Below, piece after piece: positions 1-27,914 of a DNA stretch of 64,000 nucleotides (its first letter is position 1; each line of letters starts with the position of its first letter). The notes under the pieces are model-generated. The model was not told the DNA's origin. It worked only from the letters and a program-made list of their open reading frames with translations, and ran no database searches. The stretch spans positions 4,353,723 to 4,417,722 of the forward strand of contig CP070751.1 of NCBI GenBank assembly GCA_020348445.1, in the 5' to 3' direction. The stretch comes from Thermoplasmata archaeon. Its GTDB lineage: Archaea > Thermoplasmatota > Thermoplasmata > GCA-020350865. Made by a program: the position numbers and the translations under genes.

Positions 1-892
1 AAGCAATTCAAAACTTTTAACAGGAGAACTTGCAACGCATCTTACCGGTAGATACATCGATATCCAACTCTTTCCATTCTCTTTTCGTGAGTTTTTAAGC
101 TTAAAACGTTTTACATCATCGAAGGTATATACTACAAAAGAAAAAGCCAAGTTGTTTGGGCTTCTGAACGAATATTTGAAACTCGGAGGTCTCCCAGAGG
201 TTTATAAATTTGGAAAGGGAATACTTCCCCGTATATATGATGATATCATAACAAAGGATATCGTTTTAAGGTACAGAATAAGAAAGAGAGAGGAGTTAAG
301 GAAGCTAGCAAGGTATCTTGTCACCAACTTTGCCGGAGAAATCAGTTATAGTAAGTTATCAAGGATTTTGGGTATCAAGCATGTCTCAACAGTATCCAAT
401 TGGATATCATATCTCGAACAAGCATTTTTGATAATAAAATTAGAGAGGTTTGATTTCAAGCTGAAACAGCAGTTTGTAGCCCCGAAAAAGGTATACGCAA
501 TCGATAGTGGGATAGCAAATTCAATAGGTTTCAGTTCATCAGAAAACACAGGGCGAATCATGGAGAACACTGTTGCTGTAGAATTACAAAGACAATGTGG
601 TTCTGGGCGGATATTCGAAGTTTACTACTGGAAAGATCATCAACAAAATGAAGTCGATTTTGTATTAAAGGATGGTCCGAAGGTTAAACAGCTTGTCCAG
701 GTTACATATGCCACCGAAAGACATGAGGTGAATGAAAGGGAGACCAAGTCCTTATTAAAAGCGTCCAAAGAATTGAGGTGCAATAATCTATTGGTGATTA
801 CATGGGATCTCTCAGGTAAAGAGAAAATAGGTGAGAAGGAGGTAACCTTCATACCCCTATGGACATGGTTATTACAAATTGATCGATTATGA
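1..892 (+). CDS. AAA+ superfamily ATPase, COG1373/DUF4143 type (5' partial; runs off the window start)
   Basis: The frame is open from base 2 (SNSKLLTGELATHLTGRY...FPFSFREFL). It contains YLKLGGLPE, PKKVYAIDSG and the C-terminal ENTVAVEL / YYWKDHQQNEVDFV motifs typical of this family. Confidence 0.85.
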   Translation, partial: SNSKLLTGELATHLTGRYIDIQLFPFSFREFLSLKRFTSSKVYTTKEKAKLFGLLNEYLKLGGLPEVYKFGKGILPRIYDDIITKDIVLRYRIRKREELRKLARYLVTNFAGEISYSKLSRILGIKHVSTVSNWISYLEQAFLIIKLERFDFKLKQQFVAPKKVYAIDSGIANSIGFSSSENTGRIMENTVAVELQRQCGSGRIFEVYYWKDHQQNEVDFVLKDGPKVKQLVQVTYATERHEVNERETKSLLKASKELRCNNLLVITWDLSGKEKIGEKEVTFIPLWTWLLQIDRL

Positions 893-10384: not shown

Positions 10385-10463
10385 TAAAGAGAATATGTTG
10401 GTTAAGCTTATGAATCATAAACACTTTTATGTCATGCGATTAAGTGGTTTGTGATGTGATAAA

Positions 10464-11333: not shown

Positions 11334-11360
11334 AGCTGTTAGATTTGGATTGTGATGTGA

Positions 11361-12071
11361 ATGCCAAGAGGTGTTGGGAAGGCGTTGGAGAAGGCCATAT
11401 CCCCAAAAGGAGAAAAGGCATCAGATGAGAAAAGAGAAAGAGAAGGTAAGTACGAATTCATGAATAAGAGCCGCCAAGAAATTTTTCAATTTTTATGCTC
11501 CCACCCTTGCAGTTATGTATCAATGATTTCAAAGGCCACAGGACTTTCAATACACGGAATCAATTGGCATCTAAGAAGGCTTATGGAAAGTGGATTTATC
11601 TCTAAAAGGGTCATGGGAAAGAAAACTGTTTTTTATCCCACTGAGATGATTGCAGAAGAAGACATACCAATTCTCGAGGTATTGAATTTAGATAAAGCAA
11701 AGGCCATATATCTTGTTATTCTTGAAAAAATAGGGATTTCGCAGGGGGATATTTGCAAAATATTGGGTTTAAATCATCAAGCTGTTATCTGGTATGCCAA
11801 AAAACTCGAGAATTTAGATCTGATCAGTTCACTGGAAGATGGGAAATACAGAAGATATTATCCGTCCGCACTTTTAATGAAAAAAAAGGATAAATACCAA
11901 AAGAGAATAAAAAACTTCAAAAACAATATAATTGCACGGTTTAAAGGAGAAAGATTATCCCCGACCATCTTAAGGTCCACAGAAGACAAGATAGTGGTGA
12001 GAATAACCCGAGGGACAGAAAAAGCTGTTCTTACCCTGCACACAAATCCGTTCGTTACCGTTCTTACTTGA
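11361..12071 (+). CDS. Transcriptional regulator with two winged-HTH domains (COG3398-like)
   Basis: Two HTH-wing units: RQEIFQFL..HP..ISKATGLSIHGINWHLRRL..GFI and IYLVILEKIGISQGDICKILGLNHQAVIWYAKKLENLDLI..EDGKYRRYY. Confidence 0.8.
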   Translation: MPRGVGKALEKAISPKGEKASDEKREREGKYEFMNKSRQEIFQFLCSHPCSYVSMISKATGLSIHGINWHLRRLMESGFISKRVMGKKTVFYPTEMIAEEDIPILEVLNLDKAKAIYLVILEKIGISQGDICKILGLNHQAVIWYAKKLENLDLISSLEDGKYRRYYPSALLMKKKDKYQKRIKNFKNNIIARFKGERLSPTILRSTEDKIVVRITRGTEKAVLTLHTNPFVTVLT

Positions 12072-12208
12072 ATTACTAGAATATTATATAATGTGCTATT
12101 ATACATTCTATCGTAATCCAAAATAAAAAATCTTACCGTAGAGTGTTTAATAATTATCAAATTAGTAGATTTACATACCAGGATATATATAAGATACAAC
12201 CACTATAT

Positions 12209-12256
12209 TTTCTAATATTAGTAGAATTTCTATTAAGATTCTACTTGGAGTAGAAT
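12209..12256 (+). promoter_or_regulatory. Two 8-3-8 palindromic operators (ATTCTACT-nnn-AGTAGAAT) upstream of a wHTH gene
   Basis: Perfect inverted repeat at 12238-12245/12249-12256; imperfect copy TTTCTAAT-ATT-AGTAGAAT at 12209-12227; both lie between an AT-rich TATA-like stretch (~12183-12192) and the ATG at 12270. Confidence 0.6.
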
Positions 12257-12269
12257 TTGAGGGATTATT

Positions 12270-12878
12270 ATGAGCGTAGAGCATTTTAAAAGTAGAGTGG
12301 ATGCTCTCTCTGGAGAGCACAGTTTAAAGATACTATTTTATCTCAGGGATAGTGATTGGTCCATTGCCTTGGATATTGCACGGGAACTTCGGCTCCATCC
12401 CACAACAGTTGCGAGATATCTTACAAAGATGCACAATGCCGGGATCATATCAAAAAGACCGAAGTGCGTGAAAACTGGAAAGACTTTTGAATACAGATTA
12501 AAATCGAAAAAAATCGATCTAACTTTGGATTTAAGTGAAGAAACTGATTATAAAAGCCCTTGTTCCATTGTGGATTTGATATCAAGAATCATTGATAGAT
12601 TAGAAAAGGTTGGTTGCCCCTTCAATCAAGACATTTTCAAAGATAAAAGAGAAAGGGAAACTTTTACCCTCATCATATCTAAAAAGGGGGACGAGATCTC
12701 CACTTTGAGCAAGAAGGACAAGGAATCTTTTACAAATGCTCTTGAGAGTCTCATCAAATTCTCTGAAAAATCTTATGGTAAATCTGTCACACAGGATATT
12801 GTTCTTTCAGCATGGCGTTCAATGGAGAAAACCGCGGGCGGATTTATGCCAGAATATATTCAGGAGGTGTTAAATTGA
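12270..12878 (+). CDS. ArsR-like winged-HTH transcriptional regulator with C-terminal extension
   Basis: LKILFYL..WSIALDIARELRLHPTTVARYLTKMHNAGIISK...KTFEYRL. Confidence 0.8.
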   Translation: MSVEHFKSRVDALSGEHSLKILFYLRDSDWSIALDIARELRLHPTTVARYLTKMHNAGIISKRPKCVKTGKTFEYRLKSKKIDLTLDLSEETDYKSPCSIVDLISRIIDRLEKVGCPFNQDIFKDKRERETFTLIISKKGDEISTLSKKDKESFTNALESLIKFSEKSYGKSVTQDIVLSAWRSMEKTAGGFMPEYIQEVLN

Positions 12879-13570
12879 AAGTATCATCTGGAATAGAGGG
12901 AGTGGATACCCTTTCTCATGGTGGATATCCTGAAGGTGGAGTGAATCTGATTTCTGGGGTAGCTGGTTCGGCTAAGACACTATTTGCCCTACATTTTCTG
13001 TGCAAAGGCTTGGAAGATAACGAGATGGGGCTTTTAATTACACTGGAAGAGGAGAAGGAAAGCATAGAGAGGGTTATGTCTCTTATGGATATCAATTCCT
13101 CCTCCAGAAAGATCGATATAATAGACCTCGGATTGATAAGAGCAGAGAAGGCCGAGGTTGGGGAGGGAATGGTAGGTTTTTCTGATCTCAAGGATTTCTT
13201 AAGCAGCTTCTTAGCCTCTCATCCCACTAAAAGGATAGTAATAGATTCCATATCTGCCGTGGGTATATATTACAAGGAAATAGAGAAACTCAGAGAAGAG
13301 CTTTTTTCCTTTGTGAGGTTTCTGAGGGGAAATGATGTAACAACAATTCTAACATCGGAGTCTTTAGAGGGAGGCAGTCTCACCAGATTTGGAGTTGAGC
13401 AGTTCCTTGCCGACTCTTTCATTGTTCTAGGTCTTGAAGAGGTCAAAGGCGAACTTAGGAGAACCATCACAATAAGAAAAATGAGGTTCACAAGCCACGA
13501 CACAGCCAAAAGACCGTTTCTAATCACAGAAAAGGGGATAGAGGTCTTTGTCAAAGAAAAGGTCCTATAA
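12875..13570 (+). CDS. KaiC/RAD55-like ATPase (likely TTG start at 12875)
   Basis: GGAGGTG RBS at 12863-12869 precedes a TTG overlapping the upstream stop. KVSSGIEGVDTLSHGGYP, Walker A variant GVAGSAKT, LITLEE, Walker B RIVIDS, GVEQFLAD, RRTITIRKMR. Confidence 0.88.
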   Translation: MKVSSGIEGVDTLSHGGYPEGGVNLISGVAGSAKTLFALHFLCKGLEDNEMGLLITLEEEKESIERVMSLMDINSSSRKIDIIDLGLIRAEKAEVGEGMVGFSDLKDFLSSFLASHPTKRIVIDSISAVGIYYKEIEKLREELFSFVRFLRGNDVTTILTSESLEGGSLTRFGVEQFLADSFIVLGLEEVKGELRRTITIRKMRFTSHDTAKRPFLITEKGIEVFVKEKVL

Positions 13571-16500
13571 TAAAAAAGTAAAAAGTGGGATTTTAGGTTT
13601 CGATCCTCTAATCGAAGGGGGATTCCCAAAAGGCTCATCCATACTCCTTCAGGGCCCCACTGGCTTGGAGAAAGAGCTATTTTATATGCAATTTATAAAG
13701 GAGGGACTTGAAAATGGAGAATCGACTGTAGTTCTTCTTTCTGTAAAATCCCCAGAGAATTTAAAGGATGAGCTGTTGGATTTGGGCTTAGATGTCGAGC
13801 TCCTCCTAGAACAAAAGAGACTCATTATCATCGACTGGTGCTCTTGGAAAACTGAAAATATAGTATACATTCAGGAGGAGGGATCAATTCTCAGGTGCGC
13901 GGCAGACATAATGAACGTGAGCATAGCCCTTGGTAAGGCCCTTTCCATGATTAAGGGTGAACGCATCAGGGCAGCAGGAGATATTCTTTCAGACGCCCTT
14001 AATTCGGAGACTCTAAGGACAGTATACGAGTTTGCTAAAGGGTGCAAGGTCAAGTTCGATGAGAAAGGCGTAACTGCGCTATTTACTCTAGAAAAGGAAA
14101 TACATGATCCAGAAACAATATCAAAACTTCAAACCCCTTTCGATGGCATCATAGATATAGAGCGGGAGAAAATTGAAAATAAAGTGGTAAGAAAGATAGG
14201 AATACTCGCGATGAAAAATTCTTCTATTCCATCTCATTACGAGGATCTTAATATTGGTAAAAACGAGGTATTTATTGGAGAACTTCCCAAAAGGAAGGAT
14301 AAGACCTCGAAAGAAAAAAGTAAATCCAAGAAATCAAAATCTTCCAAAGCTTCCAAAACCCATTCTGCCCCCAAAAAATCCAAATCATCAAAGAAGTCGG
14401 ATAAGTCAAAAAAATCCAAGTCATCTAAAGAGTCGAAACCATCTAAATCACCTGAGACTTCCAAAAGCCGTCCCCCCTCTAAAAAACCAAAATCGCTTAA
14501 AACATCAAAAAAGCCAAGGTCCTCAACAAAATCTAAATCGTCCAAATCCCCTAAAAAGCCCAAATCATCCAAAGCTCGTAAATCCTCCAAATCATCTGTA
14601 TCTTCTAAGAAAACTAAACAAACAAAATCACCCGAGCCTGATCTTCTTCCAGTTACCGAAGAATCACAAGATGCGGAGCTTGAAGAAAAGGAAGTGAAAG
14701 TAGAAGAGAAGGTAGAAGAAAAACCAAAACAATCCATTTATCTTTGTGTCGAGTGTGGAGCTTTTATAGGTAAACAGGGTGAGAAATGTAGCATTTGCGG
14801 TGCCGTATTTTTCGAAGAGGAAGAAACCGAAGATGAAGAAGATGAAGGGGAAAATATCCCTGAGATCGAGAGGGAGGAAATTGACAGTCATGACCTATAC
14901 CTATGTCCAGAATGCGGAGCTCTATTATCACCTGATGCTGAAATCTGTATCAATTGCGGATCAAGTTTGGAAGAGGAGGAATCAGAAGGGGAGGAACCAG
15001 AAGACGAGTCAACATCCGAGCCTGAGAATGTGCCAGACCTATTGGATAGTGAGCCTAAGACAGAGATTTTTCTATGTCCGGAATGTGGTGCTCTATTGGG
15101 TCCAGATGCTGAAATCTGTGTAAATTGCGGATCAAGTATAAAAGATGTGGAATTCCAAGAAGAGGATATTATATCAGAACTCGAGGATGTTCTGGATTTT
15201 GTAACTCATGATAAGGAAACAGAGATTTTTTTATGTCCTGAGTGCGGGGCCTTCATAAGTTCCATGGTAAATGAATGCTCAATTTGCGGTGTCGTATTTG
15301 AAGAAGAGGAAGGCATTGAGTCAGTCGAAGAAGAGACTATCTTGAAATCTGAAGAAGTACCAGATTTCTGGTATAGAAAAGAGCATGCAATGCCCTACAT
15401 ATGCCCTTGGTGTGGGGCTTTTATCAAAGCAGGGGAGACATGGTGTGATATATGCAATGCAGAAATTGTTTCAGGAAAGCAACATGTTACAGAACCATCA
15501 GAAGAAGAGGATTTTTCACCATTATGGATCCCATCAGAGAATCTATGCCCAAAATGCGGTGCATTCAATGCCAATGATGCCCAGGGTTGTTCAGTCTGCG
15601 GTAAACAAATAAAAGAAGAAATACGAACAGTTGAAGAGGAAATCACACAACAAGAAAGCACATATGATGCAAAAATCGAGGACGAAATCGAGAATTTAAT
15701 TGCCTTACTAGAGGAATTTGATACTGAAGAAGAAGAGAGTTTGACCAGTAGCCCAAAAATAGATATTAAATATGATAGAAAAGACGCAATAGGGATCACT
15801 AATGGACTTACAAATGGCTTAAAAGCACGTACAAGTAAAGTGAGAAAGTGTTTCATAAATGGCATTACAAACGGCATAAAAACGCCAAAAAGAGGAATGA
15901 CAAATGGTCTTACCAACGGTATGATAATGGAGCTTAAAGCCCTAAGAGATGGATTCACAAACGGTAAAGGGATATCAAATGGTCTGACCAACGGTCTAAC
16001 AAATGGTCTTACTAATGGATTGAGAAGGCTGAGAAGGGGAATTACAAACGGAATCACCAACGGAAACGGAATAACCAATGGAATTGGCCCCGTCAAAGAG
16101 ACCATGGTCAAAAAGGCAAAGATTAGTAAAATTCTAGTTACCATTGGCCTTGTGATGTTGCTCTTCATCTCGCCCTTTCTAATAAGTTCATTTGTTCCTT
16201 CCCATGAGCCTCTCCAAATCGATGGTAACTTCAGCGATTGGGATAATTTTATGAGGTATTCGGATTCCCTAACAGACCAAACAAAAAACCAAGATATCAA
16301 TATAGAGGAATTCAAGGTAACTCACAATAGATGGGGTGAAATTGCATTCTATCTCAAAGTCAGGGGCACATTGCTTTCGGGTCAATATGGATTGGACTCG
16401 GTTCATATATTCATAGATGAAGACGATAACACCGAAACAGGCTACCGTATAAGGACGATTGGAGCCGATAAACTGATCTTTATTACAGGATGGAATAACA

Positions 16501-18512
16501 GCATTTTTAAAAGCAGTTATAGCGAATTCAATATTTCTCGAAGCTCCATTGATATTAACGGTTTCAATGTTTTGTATAATCTACCTGCAGCCATTGGAAA
16601 AAATCAACTGGAAACGAAGTTGTGGCTTGCCACACTAAATGAGCATCAAAATACGCCCATCAGGGTATTATTCAGTGTGAGGGATACAGCTGGTAATCAG
16701 GATCTTTCCGATATTATAGTGAACCATTGTAAGGGAGCGTTATTGATCAATGAAACGACCATCGCCCCTTTGATCATCCCCAAAGGCTCAAATGATGTAC
16801 CCATTTTAAAAATTGAATTAAGTGCAATTAATAAGGATATAACTTTTGAATCCCTTAACCTCACTAAAACAGGCACCGCTACCAACACAGATATAGGTCC
16901 CCTTTCTGTTTTTTTAGATAAAAATAATAACGATATCTTCGATATCCACGAGGATGAAAGAATTATACGGGTTTTGGGAGGGTTCATACAAAATAAGCTA
17001 AATATACAAATTGCTCAAAATCTCATAAAAGACCGAACAGAATCCATATTCATCACTTTGGACATATCTGAATCTGCGAAAGATGCAAGTACCATTGGAT
17101 TAAGAATTGCAGAGCCAAAGGATGTTGTTTTCTCCCTTGGTGTTTTGACACTTACTTCTTTTTATCGGACCAACAGCTATATAGATAAAATTGGAGACAA
17201 CATAGCCATAGACGGAGCATTTGGGGATTGGACCTCAAAACCACTTTTGAGTGATTCTTACAAAGATGTGAAACTGGGAAATCATAGTGTTGAAAATCCC
17301 AATATAGATATATTGCGCTATAACATCCAACACAACTCTTCTGCCCTGTCCTTCTTTCTAGATGTAAGCGGCACTATGTTGGGGGGAGTTTGTGTTCCTT
17401 GGAATGCCACACGCCCTCCTGAATCAAGGGAAGGTGGATTGAAGGACAGTGATGGAGACGGGATAGCAGATGAAGATGAACCTGGATTCGAACATGATTT
17501 TGACAACGATGAAGGCCTACCCAATGATCCCAATAATCCAGTAAGTCCGAATACAGGGTCTGATGGCCTCGATCACGACAGCGATGACGATGGTGTTGAG
17601 GATTGGCCCTGGGGAAACGATACAGTCCTCAAAAACCCACGAACAGGGAAGACCAAATATATTGGAGAGCCTGCTTTACCTCCTCCACTTCCCATGGTCA
17701 CAGGGGAGGATATGATATATATTTTCATTGATTCAGATGACAATCCACAAACAGGTTACTTTATCAATGAATTCATGGGGGCTGAATTCATGCTTAACAT
17801 CTCAGGAAAGGGCAATCATATAACTGGGAAATATCTAAACATTTTCAACTCCTCTAATTCTAAAAAATGGAAATGGAACCTGATGAAGGATGTTAACGCT
17901 GCCATAGATTCAAGATCTTTTGAGGCAGACGTTGCATTCGATATTCTGGGGATACCAAACAACAGCACCTTCAATATCTGGTTTTTCACAACTGATTGGC
18001 AAAATCGAGGGGAAATGTCAGATTTAAGTGTCAGTGAAACCAGAGAAAATAGAATGACAAGGGCAAAAGGTGGAGGGGGAAGCGCAGTAATAAATGAGGT
18101 ATTCCCTGATACAAATGGATGGGTTGAGCTTTACAACCCCACCAATAAAGCCGTGGATCTTACTGGTTGGTATGTCACTTGGAGTGGAGGGACATACAAC
18201 ATTCCCGCAGGAACAACCATTCAATCCAACGATTATCTTGTATTCAATATAGGAAACATTCCCTCAACCGACACAACGGGATTGTACAACCAAAAGAACC
18301 AGAAAAAGGATGAAACGAGCTTTACTAACATCCCCTTAAACTTTGGATGGGGTAGGAATCCAAGTAAGACACAGGACTGGTATATTACCTATCCTACACC
18401 AAATGGACCAAATATCATACCTGAGTTTTCTAATGTTTTTATTCCTATCATATTCATAGGAATTGTTTTTTGTTTGTTTAGATACCGCAGAAGAAAATAT
18501 CTTCTTGGGTGA
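13548..18512 (+). CDS. Giant membrane-spanning protein B: degenerate KaiC-like domain + K/S-rich tract + 6 zinc ribbons + (NGLT)n + TM + extracellular module + lamin-tail-like domain + PEF-CTERM
   Basis: 1654 aa. KSGILGFDPLIEGGFP with Walker A degenerated to GPTGLEKE; six CxxC-x10-CxxC; NGLT repeats ~15795-16085; TM ~16131-16195; IPEF + hydrophobic helix + RYRRRK. Confidence 0.85.
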   Translation: MSKKRSYNKKVKSGILGFDPLIEGGFPKGSSILLQGPTGLEKELFYMQFIKEGLENGESTVVLLSVKSPENLKDELLDLGLDVELLLEQKRLIIIDWCSWKTENIVYIQEEGSILRCAADIMNVSIALGKALSMIKGERIRAAGDILSDALNSETLRTVYEFAKGCKVKFDEKGVTALFTLEKEIHDPETISKLQTPFDGIIDIEREKIENKVVRKIGILAMKNSSIPSHYEDLNIGKNEVFIGELPKRKDKTSKEKSKSKKSKSSKASKTHSAPKKSKSSKKSDKSKKSKSSKESKPSKSPETSKSRPPSKKPKSLKTSKKPRSSTKSKSSKSPKKPKSSKARKSSKSSVSSKKTKQTKSPEPDLLPVTEESQDAELEEKEVKVEEKVEEKPKQSIYLCVECGAFIGKQGEKCSICGAVFFEEEETEDEEDEGENIPEIEREEIDSHDLYLCPECGALLSPDAEICINCGSSLEEEESEGEEPEDESTSEPENVPDLLDSEPKTEIFLCPECGALLGPDAEICVNCGSSIKDVEFQEEDIISELEDVLDFVTHDKETEIFLCPECGAFISSMVNECSICGVVFEEEEGIESVEEETILKSEEVPDFWYRKEHAMPYICPWCGAFIKAGETWCDICNAEIVSGKQHVTEPSEEEDFSPLWIPSENLCPKCGAFNANDAQGCSVCGKQIKEEIRTVEEEITQQESTYDAKIEDEIENLIALLEEFDTEEEESLTSSPKIDIKYDRKDAIGITNGLTNGLKARTSKVRKCFINGITNGIKTPKRGMTNGLTNGMIMELKALRDGFTNGKGISNGLTNGLTNGLTNGLRRLRRGITNGITNGNGITNGIGPVKETMVKKAKISKILVTIGLVMLLFISPFLISSFVPSHEPLQIDGNFSDWDNFMRYSDSLTDQTKNQDINIEEFKVTHNRWGEIAFYLKVRGTLLSGQYGLDSVHIFIDEDDNTETGYRIRTIGADKLIFITGWNNSIFKSSYSEFNISRSSIDINGFNVLYNLPAAIGKNQLETKLWLATLNEHQNTPIRVLFSVRDTAGNQDLSDIIVNHCKGALLINETTIAPLIIPKGSNDVPILKIELSAINKDITFESLNLTKTGTATNTDIGPLSVFLDKNNNDIFDIHEDERIIRVLGGFIQNKLNIQIAQNLIKDRTESIFITLDISESAKDASTIGLRIAEPKDVVFSLGVLTLTSFYRTNSYIDKIGDNIAIDGAFGDWTSKPLLSDSYKDVKLGNHSVENPNIDILRYNIQHNSSALSFFLDVSGTMLGGVCVPWNATRPPESREGGLKDSDGDGIADEDEPGFEHDFDNDEGLPNDPNNPVSPNTGSDGLDHDSDDDGVEDWPWGNDTVLKNPRTGKTKYIGEPALPPPLPMVTGEDMIYIFIDSDDNPQTGYFINEFMGAEFMLNISGKGNHITGKYLNIFNSSNSKKWKWNLMKDVNAAIDSRSFEADVAFDILGIPNNSTFNIWFFTTDWQNRGEMSDLSVSETRENRMTRAKGGGGSAVINEVFPDTNGWVELYNPTNKAVDLTGWYVTWSGGTYNIPAGTTIQSNDYLVFNIGNIPSTDTTGLYNQKNQKKDETSFTNIPLNFGWGRNPSKTQDWYITYPTPNGPNIIPEFSNVFIPIIFIGIVFCLFRYRRRKYLLG
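14289..14640 (+). repeat. Lys/Ser-rich low-complexity coding tract
   Basis: ~115 aa of KSKSSK/PKKSKSSK-like units within protein B. Confidence 0.85.
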
Positions 18513-18772: not shown

Positions 18773-21700
18773 ATGGAGTTAGGCTCCTTAAAAATCTTCT
18801 TGAGTATGCACGGAATCAGCCCACGGGCAGCGGAGATACTCTACAATGCTGGTTTTGATGATATTCAAAAGCTGAAGAGTGCCTCAATCCAAGAATTAAT
18901 AGAAATTTCAGGCATCGACACACAAACTGCCTTAAAAATCAGGAATGTGGTTCTTAAGACGGATTTTGACGAGAAAGAAGTAAAGGGCGAGATATTCATT
19001 TGTTCTAAATGCGGAGCCTTTGTGTCATCATCATCAAAAAAATGTGATGTTTGTGGAGCTTCAATAAAGGACTTTTTTGAAGAGGGAAAGCAAGAAGCGA
19101 AGGTAGAAGGGGAGATAAAAGGTGTAAAAGATCACACAAGGGATTTAGAAGATATCGATAATTACCTGAATATCCTGGCTGGGATATTAGAGTTAAAGCA
19201 CGGGGATAGAGCACTTACAATTAGAAAAATAGAAAAGGAATTGGACACCTTCATAGATGAACTTGAAGGGGATATACCACACGAGCTTTATTTATCTAAA
19301 TTAGATATAGAGCCCCTATTTTATTGTCCAGAATGCGGAGCATCGATTACCAAGGTGTCTGATAAATGCGAAATATGTGGATTACTTTTCGGGGAGCCAA
19401 TATTTGAACCTTTGGAATTTCCAAAGGATGATATTAGTATAAAGCAACTTTTTGAAAGGGATGTTAATAAGGCGAGCTTACTTGTGGGTATAAGCGTAGA
19501 GTTAAAGAAGGCACAGGACATACCGGAACTTTGGTACTCCAAGGGTGTAATTTTTGCAGATATGGAAGAGCATGAGCTGGCGATAAAAAGTTTTGATAGG
19601 GTCCTTGTTCTTGATAAGAATAACAGCAAGGCATGGAACGCTAAAGCCTCTTCCCTTGCTAAGCTTGGAAGGTATAATGAAGCGTCAGAATGTTTTGGAA
19701 GGGTGACAGGTCTTCTACTTCGGGCTTTCGAGACGAGGCAAAAAGATGAGGAGGAGTTGAAGATCCAGGAGGATGCTGTTTTATATGTCTGTGGTGAATG
19801 TGGTGCTTTTATCGGCGATTACGCACAAACGTGTCAAACATGCGGATCCAAGGTGATCGAGGATATCGAGAGCATCGTGTCCCAAATTCCATCGCATGAG
19901 ATAGAAGAGGAATTACCATCTGAAATTGAAGAGGAATTGGATGTCATAAGTGTGGATCAGGATATATCGACATTGGTGGATACCCAGCTAAGGGCTAAGG
20001 AACCAGCCTTGTTGATGAGCTGTCCCGAGTGTGGGGCCTTCATAGAAAAGGAGGAAAAGAAGTGTAATATATGCGGGTTGATTTTGGGGGTCCCCATCGA
20101 GGAATCACCAGAAGCACTTGAAGAATTTATTCTTGCCACGACACCCATTGGAGTGGAGATCGAGAAAACACGGCATCTGGCGAGTATCAATGCAGAATTG
20201 AAAAAGAAACCAAATGATCTGGAGCTTTGGTATTCAAAGGGTGTAATTCTAGCGGATATGGGTGAGCATGAACTCGCAATAAAATGTTTTGACAGAATTT
20301 TAACACTGGATGATAACCACAGCAAGGCATGGAACGCCAAAGCCTTTTCCCTGGCAAAACTCGGGCGGTTCAATGAGGCATCCATATGTCTTGCTAAGGT
20401 TGCTGAGCCCGTATTTGAAACATTTGACGAGATAGGTAGGTACGAGAAAGAATTATTGTTCGAGGTAAAGGAAAGATTTCAGACGTGTCTTACATGCGGG
20501 GTGCCTCTGAATTGGGATGATACAGTCTGTTACAACTGCGGAACCGCAGTTGCGGAGTTCAAAGAGGCTGTGGAGGAGGAAGCAAAGAAGGGAGTCTCAA
20601 GAGACTTCCGTAAGCGTTGGGAAAAAATATCTCAATTTGAGGAGCCCATAGATACTGATGTCCCTGTTGAGGAAACAAAAGAACCTGAGGAAATCGAGGA
20701 ATCATTTGAAGAACCGAAAGAGTTTGAGATGCCCTATGAGGAGCCTGAGGTTCCGGTTGAAGAATTTGAGGAAGAGATCGAGGCTCCATTTAAAGAACCT
20801 GAGGAGCTTGAATTACCCCATGAAGAACCCGAAGAATTAGAGATTCCATTTGAAGAGTTTGAGGCTCCAATAGAGGAACCTGAAGAAATAAAGGCCCCAT
20901 TCAAGGAACCTGAGGAGCTTGAATTACCTTATGAAGAACAAGAAGAAATAGAGGTTCCAGTTGAAGAATTTGAGGAAGAGGTCGAAGCTCCGATAGAGGA
21001 ACCTGAAGAAATAGAGGCCCCATTTGAAGAACTTGAAGAACTTGAATTACCCCATGAAGAACCTGAAGAGTTTGAAGTTCCCATTGAAGAGGCTAAAAAG
21101 GTTGAGGCCTCCTTTGAAGAACCTGAAGAGTTTAAAGTTCCCATTGAAGAGGCTGAAAAGGATGAGACTCCCTTTGAAGAACCTGAAGAGTTTGAGTTAC
21201 CAATGGAAGAACCTGATGAAGTTGAAGTTCATGAAGAAGAGCCTGTGGTATTTGAATTAGTACAAGAAGAACCAGTAGAGGTCGAAGCTCCTGTCGAAGA
21301 ACCAAAGGAGGTTGAATTACCAGTTGAAGAACCTAAAGAGGTTGAGGTTCCAGTTGAAGAATTTAAGGAAGAAATCGAAGCTCCGATAGAGGAACCGGAA
21401 GAAGTTGAGGCCCCTGTTGAAGAACCAAAAGAGATTGAAGTTCCAGTGGAAGAATTTGAGGAAGAATTCCTAATTAAAGAGCTCAACGAATTTGGGGCAT
21501 TACTTGAAGAACCAGAGGAAGTCGAGGCTCCTTTAGAGGAACCTGAGGAAGTTGAAGTTGCTTTCGAAGAACTTGAAGAGTTTGAACTTCCCAAAGAAGA
21601 ACCTGAGGAAATCGAAGTTCCATTTGAAGAACCAGAGGATATTGAGGCTCCTTTAGAGGAACTTGAGGAAGTCACAGTTCCATTAAAAGAACTAGAAGAC

Positions 21701-24700
21701 ATTGCGTTTCCTATTATAGAGCCTGAAGAAGTTGAAATTCCATTAGAAGAAATAGAAGATATTGAGGCTCCCTTAGAAGAGCTTGAGGAAGTTGAAGTTC
21801 CTGTAGAAGAACCAGAAGACATTGAGGCTCCTTTAGAGGAACCTGAGGCAGTTGAAGTTCCATTAGAAGAACTAGAAGATATTGAGGTTCGTATTGAAGA
21901 ACCAAAAGAAGTTGAAGTTCCTATAGAGGAACCAGAGGAAGTCAAGGCTCCTTTCGAAGAACTTGAAGAGTTTGAGCTTCCCAAAGAAGAACCTGAGGAA
22001 ATTGAAATTCCATTAGAAGAACTAGAAGATATTGGGGCTCCTTTAGAGGAACTAGAAGAAGTCGAGGCTCCTTTCGAAGAACTTGAAGAGTTTGAGCTTC
22101 CCAAGGAAGAACCTGAGGAAATTCCATTTGAGGAGCCCAAAGGGGTCGATACCTTATCCGAAGAGCTTGAGAAGAGGGGTGTTCACTCATGTCCAAATTG
22201 CGGATGGCCGTTCGAAGAGGGTGCCTTTGAATGCGATATCTGCGGTGCAGATGTTGAGATATTTAAAGAAGTACCATCTATAGAGGACAAAGGATTAATA
22301 AGCATAGGAGCTGAGCCCGAAACCGGGGCAAAAATATCAGGTCTTACTAATGGCCTGACCAATGGTACGAGAGCCCACAGAGGAGGGCTTGTCAATGGAA
22401 ATGGGATAACCAATGGATTTACCAACGGAATTACAAATGGTTTAACAAATGGTCTGAAAAAGGCCAGGTTGGGATTGACCAATGGAATCACAAACGGTCT
22501 TACAAATGGATTAACAAACGGTTTGACAAATGGATTAAGGGCTCTGAAGATGGGTATCACAAATGGTATCACAAACGGTAACGGAATCACAAACGGTCTT
22601 AGTGCGCAAACGGTAAAAACCACAACGAAAAAGAGCGCAAGTAGAATTGTTGTCGCATGGTTACTCATTGTGGCTTTGATATCATTTCCTTTTATTTTGA
22701 GCAATCTCAGTGAGGAATCTAAAATAGTGGAGATCGATGGTAATTTCAGAGAATGGCGTGATATCCCTGGCTATTCTGATTCATCGATGGACCAGATTTA
22801 CAATCAAGACATAAACATCGATGAGTACAAGCTGAAACTCAACAATTTAGGGGAACTCGCATTCTATCTAAGGGTGAACGGGACCATGTTAAACGGTGCT
22901 TACGGTATGGACTCAGTTAATATTTTCATAGACGAGGACGATAATTTTGATACTGGTTATAAGATATCTACATTGGGGGCCGACAAGATGATAGCTGTCT
23001 GGGGATGGGACAACATCATATATGATGGAGGTTACAGCGAGTTCAACATGTCGCACTCGCAATTGGACCTAAATGGTTTCGATATATTCTATGAGATACC
23101 AACTGCCATTGATAAGGATAAACTTGAGACGAAGTTATGGCTTTCTGTTTTAAATGTGGAATTGAATCGGCCCGTGAAGGTGCTTTTCAATGCCAGAGAT
23201 ACAGCGGGTAACGAGGATATATCGGATGTGATAATCAGTCAAATAGATGGCGCGCTTCTCATCAACGAAATAAGTATCGCGCCACTGGAAATCCCAAAAG
23301 GTGCGAACAGGTTGCCAATGTTAAAATTGGAATTGAGTGCAAATGGTGAAGATATATTGTTGAAATCCATGAACCTTACCATAACAGGCACCGTAACAAG
23401 TAATGATTTAACGGGAATTAGCATTTATCTTGACAGTAACGAAAACGGTATCTTGGATGGGACAGGAGATGAAGAAATTGCGAGGATAGACAATGGAATT
23501 GACGAAAGCAAGGTCAATGTCCCAGTTTCTTTGTCCATAATAGAGGACAAGGAAGAAACACTCTTTGTGACCATAGATGTATCCTACGAAGTACAAGATA
23601 TAAAAACCATAGGAATACGAATTGCAGAGCCTAGTGATGTCATTTTTGAGCCCGGTGTTATAACACTAATACCTGTGTATGTTACGAGCAGCTACATTGG
23701 TGATGTGGGTGATAACATAACCATCGATGGGGCATTTGCCGATTGGAAAAACCATCCCTCAAGAAGCGATGCTCACCACGATGTTAGAAATCAGGGTAAT
23801 CTAATAGAAAATCTGAACGTTGATATAGCAAACTACAATGTACAAAATGACTTTCATGCTTTATCCTTCTATCTTGATGTTGGGGGTACTATGCTTGGCG
23901 GAGTAACTGTACCCTGGAATGCAACACGTCCTTCTGAACCGATAAGAGGTGGACCAGTTGATAGTGATGGTGATGGAATACCTGATGTGGAGGAAGCCTC
24001 GGAGTTCAGACATGATTTCGACAATGACGCAGGATCCCCTGATGAACTAGATAATCCGGTGAGGCCGAATACCGGGCCAGATGGCTACGATCACGACAGT
24101 GATAACGATGGCCAGGAAGATTGGCCATGGGGTAATGATACGATCCTAAAGCAACCTAAAACAGGGAGGAAGCGATATATAGGCGAACCCCGTCCACCTC
24201 CCAAACTGCCAGTGGTCACGGGTGAAGATGTGGCTTATATTTTCATAGATGCAGATAACGATAAATCCACAGGTTATTATGTTAATGAAATATTTGGTGC
24301 AGATTTCATGCTCAATATTTCGGGGAAAGGTAACCTCATAACATCAAAATACATAAACAGATTCAATTCTACAAATATTAGAAGTTGGAAATGGAACATT
24401 ATAGGGAATTTGAGCGCTGCTATAGATTCACATGCTTTAGAGGCAAAGGCCGACTTCGATGTCCTTGATATTTTACCAAACGAAACCTTTAGTATCTGGT
24501 TTTTCACCACTGATTGGCGGGACTCATATGATTTATCTGATTACAGCCTTTCTGATACCAGAGACATTAGGGGAACCAGGGCCGGAAAGGGAAATCCCAT
24601 AATAAATGAAATTTATCCCGATACAAATGGATGGGTGGAACTGTACAATCCTACAAACAAACAATTACGTCTTACAGGATGGAGTATAACATTTAGCGGT

Positions 24701-25069
24701 GGCACCTTTAATATTCCCGCAGGCACAACGATCCAACCTGGAGGGTATCTAGTATTCTACATTGGAAACGTTCCATCAACTGATACAGTGAGGCTATACA
24801 ATGCGAAGGGTCAAAGAAAGGATGAAACATCTTTTGCCAGCATACCTTCCGGCTTTGGATGGGGTAGAAATCCAAATAAACAACAGGATTGGTATATAAC
24901 CTACCCCACACCTGGTGATATAAATGTCATACCTGAGTTCAGTGATATTCTTCTCCCTATTTTTATCATGATAATCTTCATCGTGGTAAGAATGTTGAAA
25001 AATGACGAAAAAATATTTAAAAGGATAAACCATGCAAAACTCCGATATGATAGAAACCGGTCCAGATAG
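18773..25069 (+). CDS. Giant membrane-spanning protein C: HhH + 6 zinc ribbons + duplicated TPR pairs + acidic decapeptide repeats + (NGLT)n + TM + extracellular module + lamin-tail-like domain + PEF-CTERM
   Basis: 2098 aa. HhH (MHGISPRAAEILYNAGF..EISGID); two TPR blocks (LWYSKGVI.ADM.EHELAIK.FDR.L.LD.N.SKAWNAKA.SLAKLGR.NEAS.C); NGLT repeats ~22340-22600; TM ~22646-22705; IPEF + hydrophobic helix + basic tail. Confidence 0.85.
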   Translation: MELGSLKIFLSMHGISPRAAEILYNAGFDDIQKLKSASIQELIEISGIDTQTALKIRNVVLKTDFDEKEVKGEIFICSKCGAFVSSSSKKCDVCGASIKDFFEEGKQEAKVEGEIKGVKDHTRDLEDIDNYLNILAGILELKHGDRALTIRKIEKELDTFIDELEGDIPHELYLSKLDIEPLFYCPECGASITKVSDKCEICGLLFGEPIFEPLEFPKDDISIKQLFERDVNKASLLVGISVELKKAQDIPELWYSKGVIFADMEEHELAIKSFDRVLVLDKNNSKAWNAKASSLAKLGRYNEASECFGRVTGLLLRAFETRQKDEEELKIQEDAVLYVCGECGAFIGDYAQTCQTCGSKVIEDIESIVSQIPSHEIEEELPSEIEEELDVISVDQDISTLVDTQLRAKEPALLMSCPECGAFIEKEEKKCNICGLILGVPIEESPEALEEFILATTPIGVEIEKTRHLASINAELKKKPNDLELWYSKGVILADMGEHELAIKCFDRILTLDDNHSKAWNAKAFSLAKLGRFNEASICLAKVAEPVFETFDEIGRYEKELLFEVKERFQTCLTCGVPLNWDDTVCYNCGTAVAEFKEAVEEEAKKGVSRDFRKRWEKISQFEEPIDTDVPVEETKEPEEIEESFEEPKEFEMPYEEPEVPVEEFEEEIEAPFKEPEELELPHEEPEELEIPFEEFEAPIEEPEEIKAPFKEPEELELPYEEQEEIEVPVEEFEEEVEAPIEEPEEIEAPFEELEELELPHEEPEEFEVPIEEAKKVEASFEEPEEFKVPIEEAEKDETPFEEPEEFELPMEEPDEVEVHEEEPVVFELVQEEPVEVEAPVEEPKEVELPVEEPKEVEVPVEEFKEEIEAPIEEPEEVEAPVEEPKEIEVPVEEFEEEFLIKELNEFGALLEEPEEVEAPLEEPEEVEVAFEELEEFELPKEEPEEIEVPFEEPEDIEAPLEELEEVTVPLKELEDIAFPIIEPEEVEIPLEEIEDIEAPLEELEEVEVPVEEPEDIEAPLEEPEAVEVPLEELEDIEVRIEEPKEVEVPIEEPEEVKAPFEELEEFELPKEEPEEIEIPLEELEDIGAPLEELEEVEAPFEELEEFELPKEEPEEIPFEEPKGVDTLSEELEKRGVHSCPNCGWPFEEGAFECDICGADVEIFKEVPSIEDKGLISIGAEPETGAKISGLTNGLTNGTRAHRGGLVNGNGITNGFTNGITNGLTNGLKKARLGLTNGITNGLTNGLTNGLTNGLRALKMGITNGITNGNGITNGLSAQTVKTTTKKSASRIVVAWLLIVALISFPFILSNLSEESKIVEIDGNFREWRDIPGYSDSSMDQIYNQDINIDEYKLKLNNLGELAFYLRVNGTMLNGAYGMDSVNIFIDEDDNFDTGYKISTLGADKMIAVWGWDNIIYDGGYSEFNMSHSQLDLNGFDIFYEIPTAIDKDKLETKLWLSVLNVELNRPVKVLFNARDTAGNEDISDVIISQIDGALLINEISIAPLEIPKGANRLPMLKLELSANGEDILLKSMNLTITGTVTSNDLTGISIYLDSNENGILDGTGDEEIARIDNGIDESKVNVPVSLSIIEDKEETLFVTIDVSYEVQDIKTIGIRIAEPSDVIFEPGVITLIPVYVTSSYIGDVGDNITIDGAFADWKNHPSRSDAHHDVRNQGNLIENLNVDIANYNVQNDFHALSFYLDVGGTMLGGVTVPWNATRPSEPIRGGPVDSDGDGIPDVEEASEFRHDFDNDAGSPDELDNPVRPNTGPDGYDHDSDNDGQEDWPWGNDTILKQPKTGRKRYIGEPRPPPKLPVVTGEDVAYIFIDADNDKSTGYYVNEIFGADFMLNISGKGNLITSKYINRFNSTNIRSWKWNIIGNLSAAIDSHALEAKADFDVLDILPNETFSIWFFTTDWRDSYDLSDYSLSDTRDIRGTRAGKGNPIINEIYPDTNGWVELYNPTNKQLRLTGWSITFSGGTFNIPAGTTIQPGGYLVFYIGNVPSTDTVRLYNAKGQRKDETSFASIPSGFGWGRNPNKQQDWYITYPTPGDINVIPEFSDILLPIFIMIIFIVVRMLKNDEKIFKRINHAKLRYDRNRSR
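20690..22150 (+). repeat. Degenerate 30-nt (10 aa) coding tandem repeat, consensus EEPEE[VIF]E[AV]P[FILV]
   Basis: Units such as EEPEEIEAPF, EEPEEFEVPI, EELEEVEAPF run across ~1.45 kb of protein C. Confidence 0.9.
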
Positions 25070-26708
25070 AACCGTATCTGCAAGCGATGTGGAGAAGTAC
25101 GGTTACTGCCCATTAAGTTGGTGGCTTTCAGAACAAAATGAGAGTGAGAAGGCTGAGAACCTGAAAAGAGGTATTCATAACCACGTTCAAATTGGTAAAG
25201 ATGTGAAAAACATCAAAGTCAAAGAGAAAAGGAGCGAGGAATCTGAGCGAAGCGTAATCTGGTTCTCCTTAATCGCTATTATTATCGGCATCAATGGTGT
25301 AGCAATTGTCTACACCATCTACTCGCCTTCCCAACAAGGTGAAACGATAATGATTTTACTATCTATAATTGCTGCGATTTGGGTATTTGTGGCTGCATTT
25401 TTCTTTTATTGGGGTACGAAAATGGAAAGAGAAACAAAGCGCACTACAATGGCTATCTCTAGTCAAAGAGCCATCTCAACGAAATATAAACCTGATAGCA
25501 GCACTGATTCGGAAATAGTGATAAAAAAAAGGGTAAAAGAAGCCAAATGGAGTACCCTTTTATTTTTTATGGTTAGTGGTATTTTGGCTTTGAATGCATT
25601 ATTTATTTTATTTAGTATAGGTGAAACCAATGTTGAGTTTATAAGCAGTATATTTCTTTTCTTATCCCTGATATGGCTTTTTGGCAGCTCCTTTTTCTAT
25701 TATAATTCATTGAAAAGAGAAATTGTATCAAAAGAAAAGAAGCAAGATGAAAAAGCGATTGTAAAACCCTCATTTTCAGATTCTGAGATATCAATAGTAT
25801 TATTTGCTATTGTGGCCACTGTTTTAGCATCAAATAGCCTTGCTATATATCAAAGCCCACATACGAATATCGGCATGATAATTCTAATAATGGCTGTGTT
25901 GTGGCTGTACGGGGGATTTATTTTCTTATATAGGGCAATAAGAGCAGATGTGAAGCTAAAGTTGCTGATCAATAGACTTTTTAGGCCCGTGGATAGTATA
26001 AGAGGGAAAATAGCCACCCGAGTCAAACTCAGTCGTGAAATAGAGGTAGAGAAATTAAATTACGAGCAAATAGTAATATGGTTTGCAGCAATATCAATGG
26101 TACTAGCAATAAATGCCATTTTAATGAACTTCACAAGGAGCCTTGAAGAGGAGATATATGGTACTTTAATAGCCCACATTTTTGAGGTCGTTGCTTTACT
26201 TTGGTTAATTGGTGCATTTTTCTTCTTATATAGGGTCATGCTTCATTCTTTAACTGCATCGAAATTGAGAACAGAACACGGTATTTCTGAGGGTAAGATA
26301 GATTATGTGGATGCCCTGGATGGGCAATCAGAAATGCTAAGATCTGAGAAATACGGACTTCGGGGAAGGCCAGATTATATCCTAGATAAAAAAGGAGAAC
26401 TCATACCTGTTGAGGTAAAGACAGGCCGCATACCGCGAGGTCCTCTTTTTTCCCATATAATACAATTGGCTGCCTATTGTTTGCTTTTGGAAGAAAAAAA
26501 TAACCGCACTCCTCCGTACGGCATTATCAAATATGGCGACACTCAGCATAAAATAGAATACACAAAAGAACTGAGGGATATTCTTATTAATAAACTTGAT
26601 GAGATGAAAAAAATCATGGTAACTGGGGAAGCTCATAGAAATCATAGACGGGAAAATAAATGTAGGGGCTGCTCCAGAAGAGAAATATGTCCCGAAAGAT
26701 TGGCCTAA
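25032..26708 (+). CDS. Cas4-like PD-(D/E)XK nuclease with an inserted 8-TM domain (solo, no CRISPR array)
   Basis: N-terminal SASDVEKYGYCPLSWWL; C-terminal GLRGRPDY..PVEVKTG..QLAAY and KCRGCSRREIC giving the 1+3 Cys arrangement; eight hydrophobic helices between them; start overlaps the end of protein C. Confidence 0.85.
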   Translation: MQNSDMIETGPDRTVSASDVEKYGYCPLSWWLSEQNESEKAENLKRGIHNHVQIGKDVKNIKVKEKRSEESERSVIWFSLIAIIIGINGVAIVYTIYSPSQQGETIMILLSIIAAIWVFVAAFFFYWGTKMERETKRTTMAISSQRAISTKYKPDSSTDSEIVIKKRVKEAKWSTLLFFMVSGILALNALFILFSIGETNVEFISSIFLFLSLIWLFGSSFFYYNSLKREIVSKEKKQDEKAIVKPSFSDSEISIVLFAIVATVLASNSLAIYQSPHTNIGMIILIMAVLWLYGGFIFLYRAIRADVKLKLLINRLFRPVDSIRGKIATRVKLSREIEVEKLNYEQIVIWFAAISMVLAINAILMNFTRSLEEEIYGTLIAHIFEVVALLWLIGAFFFLYRVMLHSLTASKLRTEHGISEGKIDYVDALDGQSEMLRSEKYGLRGRPDYILDKKGELIPVEVKTGRIPRGPLFSHIIQLAAYCLLLEEKNNRTPPYGIIKYGDTQHKIEYTKELRDILINKLDEMKKIMVTGEAHRNHRRENKCRGCSRREICPERLA

Positions 26709-27064
26709 TCCTCCTCATCTTCCTTACTTTCATCATCATTATTGATATTAGGATTCTTTTGAGCCATTAAAGAGTCAAGTTTGGTATTAATGGACTTAAT
26801 CTCTTCTCGCATTTTCAACATTTCCTCCTCAAAAGGGGTAAAGCCTCCTATAGAGAGGATTCTATGGCTAAGGAACATACCAATGAAAATCGCACCGATG
26901 AGGGCCATCAGAATTAGGGCTACCCATGTGACAATTGCCATCCTGACGAAAAAGAACACATCTGTGATATCTGGATAAAAGAAAAGGGTAAGGAATAATG
27001 CAATAATACCCAACAATATTATCCATCCTATCAATGATTTTGGAGTTTTAACCTTCAATTTCAT
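26705..27064 (-). CDS. Small two-TM membrane protein with a C-terminal coiled coil
   Basis: Two hydrophobic stretches, then FTPFEEEMLKMREEIKSINTKLD; overlaps the upstream gene by 4 nt. Confidence 0.6.
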   Translation of the reverse strand: MKLKVKTPKSLIGWIILLGIIALFLTLFFYPDITDVFFFVRMAIVTWVALILMALIGAIFIGMFLSHRILSIGGFTPFEEEMLKMREEIKSINTKLDSLMAQKNPNINNDDESKEDEED

Positions 27065-27483
27065 TCCTTTCTCTCCATAATGATCTTATGGGGAAACGTT
27101 TTTTCAACTTCATGATTATCCCCAGATTTCTTGATATACATTTTCATTTCCCCATCATCATCAAACAGTCTAATAGTACCTTTGTACTCATATTCCTTTT
27201 GTTTATCCCAAACAGAGACATGTAGAAGAAAAGCTTCAAGGGATGTGCTCATGTGAGATTCATAGGTATAATTTTCTTCTAAGCTCTCATCTTTTATTCT
27301 TATTGTGATGTTTGAAAATAGACGGTCATCTATACCGCGTATGAAGATTTTCGTCTCTTCAGTCTCTTCAATATAATCAATTAAAATTGTGGGTATCCCA
27401 GATAATGGGGGTTGATTCTCTGTACATCCCGTTAGGATGAAAAGGAAAAAAACAACACCTAAACTAAGGTATTTATATGGCAT
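27061..27483 (-). CDS. Putative lipoprotein
   Basis: MPYKYLSLGVVFFLFILTGC resembles a lipobox signal, followed by a soluble domain. Confidence 0.6.
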   Translation of the reverse strand: MPYKYLSLGVVFFLFILTGCTENQPPLSGIPTILIDYIEETEETKIFIRGIDDRLFSNITIRIKDESLEENYTYESHMSTSLEAFLLHVSVWDKQKEYEYKGTIRLFDDDGEMKMYIKKSGDNHEVEKTFPHKIIMERKE

Positions 27484-27614: not shown

Positions 27615-27914
27615 TTAATAGCGGTATTCGTCGCGATATCCTGGTTGTTGGTATGACGTTCCACGAGGTTGGGTTGTTCCCCGACCGTCTAGTTGGTTGG
27701 CCTTCATTTCCATCTCGCGCACTTGAGCTTGTATCTTTTTTAATTTTGCTTCTAATTTTGCTGCCTCGCCCCTCTTTTTTGCGACCTTAGCCCTTAATTT
27801 AGCCGCCTTGGCCGTGGCTTTTGCATCCTTTTGTACGGCCTTGGCCTTCTTGACCTGGTCCTTAGCTCTTTGCTTAGCAGCTTTTACTTGAGTTCTATTA
27901 CTCATAGATATCAC
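27615..27914 (-). CDS. Lys/Ala-rich basic coiled-coil protein of unknown function
   Basis: KAAKQRAKDQVKKAKAVQKDAKATAKAAKLRAK; own TATA-like TTTATAAA upstream on the minus strand. Confidence 0.55.
   Translation of the reverse strand: MISMSNRTQVKAAKQRAKDQVKKAKAVQKDAKATAKAAKLRAKVAKKRGEAAKLEAKLKKIQAQVREMEMKANQLDGRGTTQPRGTSYQQPGYRDEYRY

Follow-up and report, generated by a model that had tools for sequence, protein, structure and literature searches.

A solo Cas4-family protein predicted to be interrupted by transmembrane hairpins in Thermoplasmata archaea

The TM-Cas4 gene and its interrupted Cas4 domain

The window studied here is a stretch of 64,000 nucleotides from a Thermoplasmata archaeon (GenBank assembly GCA_020348445.1, contig CP070751.1) whose genome consists of one contig of 5,156,303 bp. 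In this window we analyzed a gene for a Cas4-like protein, here called TM-Cas4, which an earlier reading of the DNA letters (the original prediction) had described as a Cas4-like nuclease split by four tandem repeats of a transmembrane (TM) hairpin. TM-Cas4 is encoded by an uninterrupted open reading frame (ORF) of 558 amino acids (aa), and the coordinates of its parts are collected in Table 1. An AGGA motif lies 8 nt 5' of the ATG, and Met6 (25047) is an alternative start that is used in the database entries. The 5' end of the gene overlaps the 3' end of the upstream gene by 38 nt. At the other end, the stop codon overlaps that of a small convergent gene in the sequence CTAA, which reads TAA on the plus strand for TM-Cas4 and TAG on the minus strand for the neighbour.

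The split was evident in the translation. Hydropathy peaks at aa 74-400 mark eight TM helices in a segment of ~330 aa, which separates the N-terminal Cys and His helices from the catalytic core. All eight helix motifs quoted in the original prediction were present: IGIN, LALN, LASN and LAIN in the first helices of the hairpins, and IWVFVAAFFFY, IWLFGSSFFYY, LWLYGGFIFLY and LWLIGAFFFLY in the second helices.

Profile searches assigned the soluble part of the protein to the Cas4 family. The NCBIfam cas4 model TIGR00372 matched TM-Cas4 in two stretches with 86.6 bits (cut-off 65), and the Pfam models PF01930 (Cas_Cas4; 47.4 bits, cut-off 22.7) and PF12705 (PDDEXK_1; 52.8 bits, cut-off 22) both matched at aa 432-554. 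Yip1, DUF3995 and other Pfam matches on the TM region were all under their cut-offs and were taken as compositional. Cysteines occur at positions 26, 483, 544, 547 and 553, which gives the pattern of one Cys (codon at 25107-25109) plus C-x2-C-x5-C; C483 sits within the QxxxY motif.

We then analyzed conservation among the relatives, which include an eight-helix (8-TM) and a four-helix (4-TM) form. Among 33 8-TM homologues, the residues H51, D448, E461, K463, Q478 and Y482 were invariant, as were the four cysteines C26, C544, C547 and C553. The N-terminal piece as a whole was well conserved in the 8-TM alignment, with S16, S18, D19, E21, Y25, C26, W30, W31, G47 and H51 invariant. The same catalytic and Cys positions were kept in the 4-TM homologues (n = 89), where they were either invariant or, for the Glu and Tyr, at least 90% conserved.

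The original prediction had suggested structure prediction as a check, and an AlphaFold2 model of the 8-TM protein was built with 33 homologues. The mean predicted local distance difference test score (pLDDT) was 62.9, with 81-93 in the core, 55-67 in the TM helices and less than 50 in the linkers. Foldseek searches with this model matched Cas4, MGME1, Dna2, AdnAB and Exo5. In VIA-align, the model aligned to 7mi5_A with a Z score of 18.7 and a root-mean-square deviation (rmsd) of 2.9 A over 162 residues (model range 10..536), and to 8d3l_J with a Z score of 17.3 and an rmsd of 3.7 A over 182 of 217 residues (model range 12..558). Since the C-terminal piece has 142 residues, about 40 N-terminal residues must superpose together with it, so that the model reassembles the split fold. 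A model of a 4-TM orthologue, built with 89 sequences, reached a higher pLDDT of 80.5 and a predicted template modelling score (pTM) of 0.73. It returned the same matches to solved Cas4 structures (Z scores 17.2 and 16.4), and its TM part matched generic four-helix bundles only (Z scores 8-10). In both models the pLDDT of the iron-sulfur (Fe-S) region and of the tail with the Cys triad was low (46-63), as would be expected of modelling that leaves out the cofactor.

In the models, then, the soluble N- and C-terminal pieces form one Cas4 domain. The invariant residues and the superposition on solved Cas4 structures identify TM-Cas4 as an intact-looking and probably active Cas4-family PD-(D/E)XK nuclease with a predicted Fe-S cluster, in agreement with the original prediction.

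To compare the hairpins we used six profiles, of which four came from 40 aligned 8-TM homologues and two, S1 and S2, from 71 4-TM homologues. All 15 pairs of hairpins matched each other with HHalign probabilities of 96.4-99.4% and E values of 1e-9 to 3e-21, while reversed controls, in which one profile of each pair was reversed, gave at most 5.1% (E at least 0.0077). An unrelated 2-TM hairpin from the neighbour gene, run against the six hairpin profiles, gave at most 3.2% (E at least 0.014). On this profile comparison the four hairpins are truly homologous. The highest probability, 99.4% (E = 3e-21), was found between hairpin 4 and S2, the second of the two 4-TM hairpins. All four hairpins scored slightly higher with the unit expected from their position in a duplicated two-hairpin module, which hints weakly at an origin of the 8-TM form through tandem duplication.

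The TM region is also conserved in sequence. Among the same 33 8-TM sequences the Trp of every second helix was invariant, and the invariant residues were N88 and W117 in hairpin 1, W215 and L216 in hairpin 2, W291, F296, F298 and Y300 in hairpin 3, and N361, W391, L392 and G394 in hairpin 4. The helices contain few polar residues.

The charge distribution pointed to a single topology. The internal linkers contain 30 Lys and Arg residues, while the four short outer loops of 7-11 aa contain only one. The positive-inside rule therefore places the N-terminus, the nuclease core and every long linker in the cytoplasm, as had been proposed for both termini. The cytoplasmic linkers are basic, with a net charge of about +12.

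In the 8-TM model, aa 41-97 form a single unbroken helix that runs from the His51 helix into TM1, and the TM8 helix (aa 374-415) stops just ahead of the first core strand at aa 422. Since the His51 helix continues into TM1 and TM8 heads to the first core strand, the active site would lie near the inner face of the membrane. The original prediction had also proposed a pseudo-4-fold arrangement of the hairpins in the membrane; with a pLDDT of just 55-67 in the TM region, the 8-TM model lends this arrangement no support.

Table 1. Features of the TM-Cas4 locus, with positions counted from the first letter of the window
Feature	Position	Strand	Basis
TM-Cas4, whole gene, Cas4-family nuclease (predicted)	25032..26708	+	ORF and translation; Pfam and NCBIfam Cas4 matches over cut-off
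N-terminal Cas4 piece, aa 14-66	25071..25229	+	Helix with the first predicted Fe-S Cys, C26, then His51 helix into TM1
TM hairpin 1, aa 74-127	25251..25412	+	Hydropathy; HHalign 96.6-98.5% against hairpins 2-4 and 4-TM hairpins S1/S2
TM hairpin 2, aa 173-225	25548..25706	+	Hydropathy; HHalign
TM hairpin 3, aa 253-301	25788..25934	+	Hydropathy; HHalign
TM hairpin 4, aa 346-400	26067..26231	+	Closest to second hairpin (S2) of 4-TM relatives
Cas4 nuclease core, aa 417-558	26280..26705	+	GRPD448; E461-V-K463; Q478...Y482; C544-x2-C547-x5-C553
Convergent 2-TM neighbour, 119 aa	26705..27064	-	Stop codon overlaps Cas4 stop
Upstream giant membrane protein, 2098 aa	18773..25069	+	HhH, zinc ribbons, TPR, LTD; context genus-specific

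Distribution, variants and genomic setting of the family

In a word-indexed search the TM-Cas4 family comprised more than 696 database clusters, which fall into two size classes, one of ~330 aa with 4 TM helices and one of ~550 aa with 8 TM helices. TM-Cas4 (P0001) was matched in 162 of the 201 genomes of the class sample, and 212 of 301 genomes matched in a sample of the phylum Thermoplasmatota; the class tallies for TM-Cas4 and for its neighbour include one unpublished genome (G097), on which no individual claim depends. The 4-TM form is the commonest overall and is the type of most other families in the class sample, where the 8-TM form occurs only in the window's genus and in one more family of the same order. 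In the class sample no match was found in any of the 20 genomes of family f6, and families f11 and f18 gave weak matches only, of the soluble-Cas4 type.

Inspection of 20 further loci added variants with 2 TM helices (280 aa), with 3-4 TM helices (~400 aa) and with 4 TM helices, as well as 8-TM forms of 499-645 aa in at least 5 more families. One of these forms is extended by 690 aa at its N-terminus. C-terminal TRAM domains, one or two per protein, are found in three 8-TM relatives (L056:7142-8884 (+), L057:7467-9401 (-) and P0048). The TRAM-bearing ORFs of L056 and L057, as called, are without the N-terminal Cys helix.

Family f43 has a gene that is broken in two at the hairpin loop (L066:7914-8707 (-) and L158:1192-2000 (+)), so that the Cys helix and TM1 lie in an N-terminal piece of 87-92 aa, and TM2 and the core lie in the C-terminal piece. 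In L066 the two ORFs, of 87 and 177 aa, overlap by 4 nt; in L158 the first ORF has 92 aa, and the C-terminal piece lies in a different frame and lacks a canonical start ahead of its TM helix.

When 185,579 species genomes were scanned by pattern, 355 relatives emerged. Among the 80 relatives listed, all titles were metagenome-assembled genomes of Thermoplasmata, Thermoplasmatota, Methanomassiliicoccales or Methanobacteriota except three, one each of 'uncultured archaeon', 'archaeon' and Aenigmatarchaeota. In a maximum-likelihood tree of the nuclease cores the sequences grouped by taxonomic family. The 8-TM forms fell into at least two well-supported clades plus singletons, which is compatible with one or several origins. 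On our reading the family is vertically inherited and roughly single-copy, and it is present in most Thermoplasmatota.

The original prediction had also proposed a profile search with the hairpin. When 1.84 billion representative proteins were searched with a profile restricted to the 4-TM module, only 83 clusters matched; the full-length matches all bear Cas4 motifs and the remainder were short fragments. Since the module was seen only with Cas4 motifs, the hairpin is private to the TM-Cas4 family. The original prediction had noted that the find would be less novel if homologues with several hairpins were common and unlinked to the locus, and such homologues did prove common and unlinked to it. 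The locus is ordinary within its family. It is the family that is apparently undescribed, though its sequences are public under the annotation 'CRISPR-associated protein Cas4'. A transmembrane Cas4 is described nowhere in the searched literature, a coverage that lies outside subscription journals, and the word 'transmembrane' is absent from the 2017 phylogenomic Cas4 survey (PMC5704561).

No match to Cas1 (PF01867) was found in the 5.16-Mb genome of the window, and a k-mer scan of that genome, in which 35,300 bases read N, found no CRISPR-like array. No cas gene was present in the 41 TM-Cas4 neighbourhoods inspected. Of the 201 class genomes, 63 have Cas1, which is concentrated in families without the TM form (15 of 20 genomes in f18 and 10 of 20 in f6), while it is rare in carrier families (0/4 in f1, 1/22 in f4, 0/6 in f22, 0/5 in f17, 0/4 in f20 and 8/24 in f16). 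The gene is a solo Cas4, a class that the original prediction had mentioned, and the TM-Cas4 family is independent of CRISPR adaptation. The genome has a second Cas4-like gene, for a soluble PD-(D/E)XK protein (381 aa) whose C-terminus is extended by a long charged segment (G000:C1:2531849-2532994; L002:1135-2280 (+)).

The genes around TM-Cas4 include L7Ae, L24e and NDK in the window, and L15e, GlmS, GlmU, a TPD-motif protein and an Fe-ADH-type gene recur across loci. The convergent neighbour codes for a small protein whose two TM helices are accompanied by the conserved motif GAIFIG..SHR..FTPFEEEML.MR, and which also has a coiled-coil-like segment and an acidic tail. Of the 70 class genomes with both genes, 63 have the neighbour tail-to-tail with TM-Cas4, at distances from a small overlap to gaps of ~100 nt; these 63 genomes span at least 15 families, and the remaining neighbours differ. 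The small gene is also present in all 23 genomes of f11, without TM-Cas4, and was not found with the window query in f4, f9, f14 and f26. The neighbour matched no Pfam family at an E value of 0.01 or better and no PADLOC family, and its clusters in the ESM Atlas bear the automatic name 'LapA domain'.

The hairpin of the neighbour was considered as a fifth copy of the Cas4 hairpin and was rejected (HHalign at most 3.2%). Co-directional downstream ORFs grouped as 'c24' were discarded as antisense shadows of the small gene, and frames of 330-430 aa around it in f11 as open-frame artefacts of high G+C. A complex prediction with the 4-TM Cas4 and the neighbour scored 0.00, which gives no verdict and is evidence neither way. 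Because convergent genes are not co-transcribed, the conservation of the neighbour is a lead, not proof, of a functional link, and the 2-TM protein may act together with TM-Cas4. In G029, a genome of the same genus, the neighbour gene occurs twice, and the second copy (C1:1142218-1142547 (-)) lies a long way from TM-Cas4. Beyond the neighbour, two ORFs of 140 and 99 aa at 27061-27483 (-) and 27615-27914 (-) belong to no family, and their order is kept in L033, a locus of a same-genus genome.

The window further contains three giant membrane proteins (5387-10384, 13548-18512 and 18773-25069, all (+)) with a common LTD-containing outer half. Their cytoplasmic heads differ, with HhH and zinc ribbons in the first, a KaiC-like ATPase in the second, and HhH, TPR and zinc ribbons in the third. 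A homologous LTD protein abuts the TM-Cas4 orthologue in L033, and in 5 of the 41 loci, from three families, an extracellular-looking protein with LTD and PLD-like domains, in part with PKD, adjoins the gene or lies a few genes off (L037, L038, L045, L047 at 10103-12850 (-), and L049). With 55 LTD matches in the window's genome, mostly in proteins of 1000-4000 aa, such adjacency is weak evidence of a functional link.

A proposed role at the membrane and its alternatives

The reading that we consider likely on balance is that TM-Cas4 is a membrane-anchored solo Cas4-family Fe-S nuclease that trims DNA ends. Its architectural part, a Cas4 domain interrupted by membrane hairpins, is very probable. 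A family-private TM hairpin would have been inserted, here in four copies, between the Cys and His helices and the catalytic core, and the two soluble pieces would remain in the cytoplasm and refold jointly into one Cas4 domain. The hairpins could then serve as a modular anchor, and possibly as an oligomerisation module, rather than as a pore.

The functional part, trimming of DNA ends or of single-stranded DNA (ssDNA) at the membrane, is offered more tentatively. It is proposed because 5'-end ssDNA nucleases have this fold and the TRAM fusions point to a nucleic-acid substrate. The enzyme could trim free DNA ends or ssDNA at the membrane as a housekeeping activity of DNA-end surveillance or processing, and the basic cytoplasmic linkers may help to hold the nucleic acid.

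Several points weigh against this reading. The family is known from sequences and models alone, and the models have low pLDDT in the Fe-S region (46-63) and in the TM part of the 8-TM form (55-67). The housekeeping role is based on distribution and neighbours only, and the same picture would be expected of a widely conserved nuclease with a defence role like that of RecBCD or AddAB. Finally, the conservation of the TM hairpins, with invariant Trp, conserved Asn and small residues, exceeds the needs of a passive anchor.

The main rival is that TM-Cas4 acts as a defence sentinel, in which a constitutive exonuclease at the membrane would attack incoming viral or plasmid DNA from its free ends. 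RecBCD and AddAB degrade linear DNA in bacteria, and the Cas4 fold is the nuclease fold of AddB and AdnAB. The modelled position of the active site at the inner membrane face would suit such a role, and the PADLOC matches of TM-Cas4 are limited to Cas4 and DruK nuclease models. Solo-Cas4 and ACE1 relatives are also reported to act in defence. However, the gene is near-universal, occurs in about one copy per genome and follows the taxonomic families, which is atypical for a defence gene, and its neighbours are housekeeping genes and not defence islands. This combination of distribution and neighbours fits a housekeeping enzyme better than a gene typical of defence, and we regard the sentinel as unlikely.

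A broader form of the housekeeping reading, also doubtful, is that in most Thermoplasmatota Cas4 with one, two or four copies of the hairpin, even as two chains, forms a hitherto undescribed membrane machine together with the LapA-like 2-TM partner and processes DNA at the membrane during import, export or end surveillance. If true, such a machine would give the solo-Cas4 class a concrete cellular role.

The original prediction had suggested that the membrane domain might be a pseudo-4-fold channel or docking site for DNA entering the cell, with the nuclease processing the arriving DNA in uptake or in catabolism of extracellular DNA. The nuclease-like extracellular LTD and PLD proteins near the gene in 5 of 41 loci, the LTD giant protein that overlaps the gene start in the window, and the origin of the genome from a sediment metagenome would all fit this idea. 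However, some relatives have only two helices and the commonest only four, which are apolar and unlike pores, and the few polar residues in the helices of TM-Cas4 itself point the same way. The commonest relatives have a 4-TM module that models as an ordinary four-helix bundle, a result in itself inconclusive for pore function, and the abundance of LTD in the genome weakens the argument from adjacency. Moreover, PF03772, the Competence domain of ComEC, was found in none of the 201 class genomes, the window's genome included. These results leave DNA entry through TM-Cas4 improbable.

It is similarly improbable that TM-Cas4 is a membrane Fe-S sensor (of redox or iron) or scaffold that has retained the nuclease fold and does not mainly cut DNA. 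The four invariant Cys residues and a TM module conserved unusually well for an anchor would be expected of a sensor, but all the PD-(D/E)XK catalytic residues are invariant too, and fusions to the nucleic-acid-binding TRAM domain occur. The last alternative, an adaptation Cas4 that trims the prespacer on the side of the protospacer-adjacent motif with Cas1-Cas2 and is anchored incidentally, draws on CAS-Cas4 proteins being the top structural and profile matches, but it is contradicted by a genome with neither Cas1 nor array, by the occurrence of Cas1 mostly in families without the TM form and by the 41 neighbourhoods, and is very improbable.

Comparison with known Cas4 proteins and related nucleases

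With TM-Cas4 probably a membrane-anchored nuclease, one large, phylum-wide lineage of solo-Cas4 would be an integral membrane protein with a strictly conserved active site and no CRISPR partner, and at least one solo-Cas4 function would be placed at the cell membrane. The label 'CRISPR-associated protein Cas4' is misleading for genomes without a CRISPR system. The 2-, 4- and 8-TM forms, the two-chain form and the TRAM form would together provide a natural series on how a soluble Fe-S enzyme tolerates an inserted membrane domain.

Solo-Cas4 genes are widespread in archaea, and to our knowledge the described proteins are soluble and of ~200 aa, while TM-Cas4 differs from them by a 327-aa insertion with eight predicted TM helices. 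Like TM-Cas4, the described solo-Cas4 genes lie away from cas operons (Methanosarcina mazei Go1, PMC12501428; Hudaiberdiev et al. 2017, PMC5704561), and the proteins have in common the pattern of one plus three Cys and the PD-(D/E)XK motifs.

The CAS-Cas4 proteins (PDB 7MI4/7MI5 and 8D3L) and SSO0001 (4IC1) have the same fold as the TM-Cas4 model, with Z scores of 17-19 and rmsd values of 2.9-3.7 A over 162-182 residues. The catalytic residues and the positions of the Fe-S ligands are identical in CAS-Cas4 and TM-Cas4. However, TM-Cas4 has no Cas1/Cas2 partner or array, and its fold is broken by the membrane domain past the His helix. The iron-staple nuclease domains of AddB/AdnAB, Dna2, Exo5 and MGME1 have a related fold (Z scores 11-13), but they are soluble, mostly fused to helicases, and none has a TM insertion. 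By analogy only, the coupling of a small helical membrane module to a cytoplasmic effector may be compared with membrane-anchored defence modules such as KwaA of the Kiwa system (PMC11785009).

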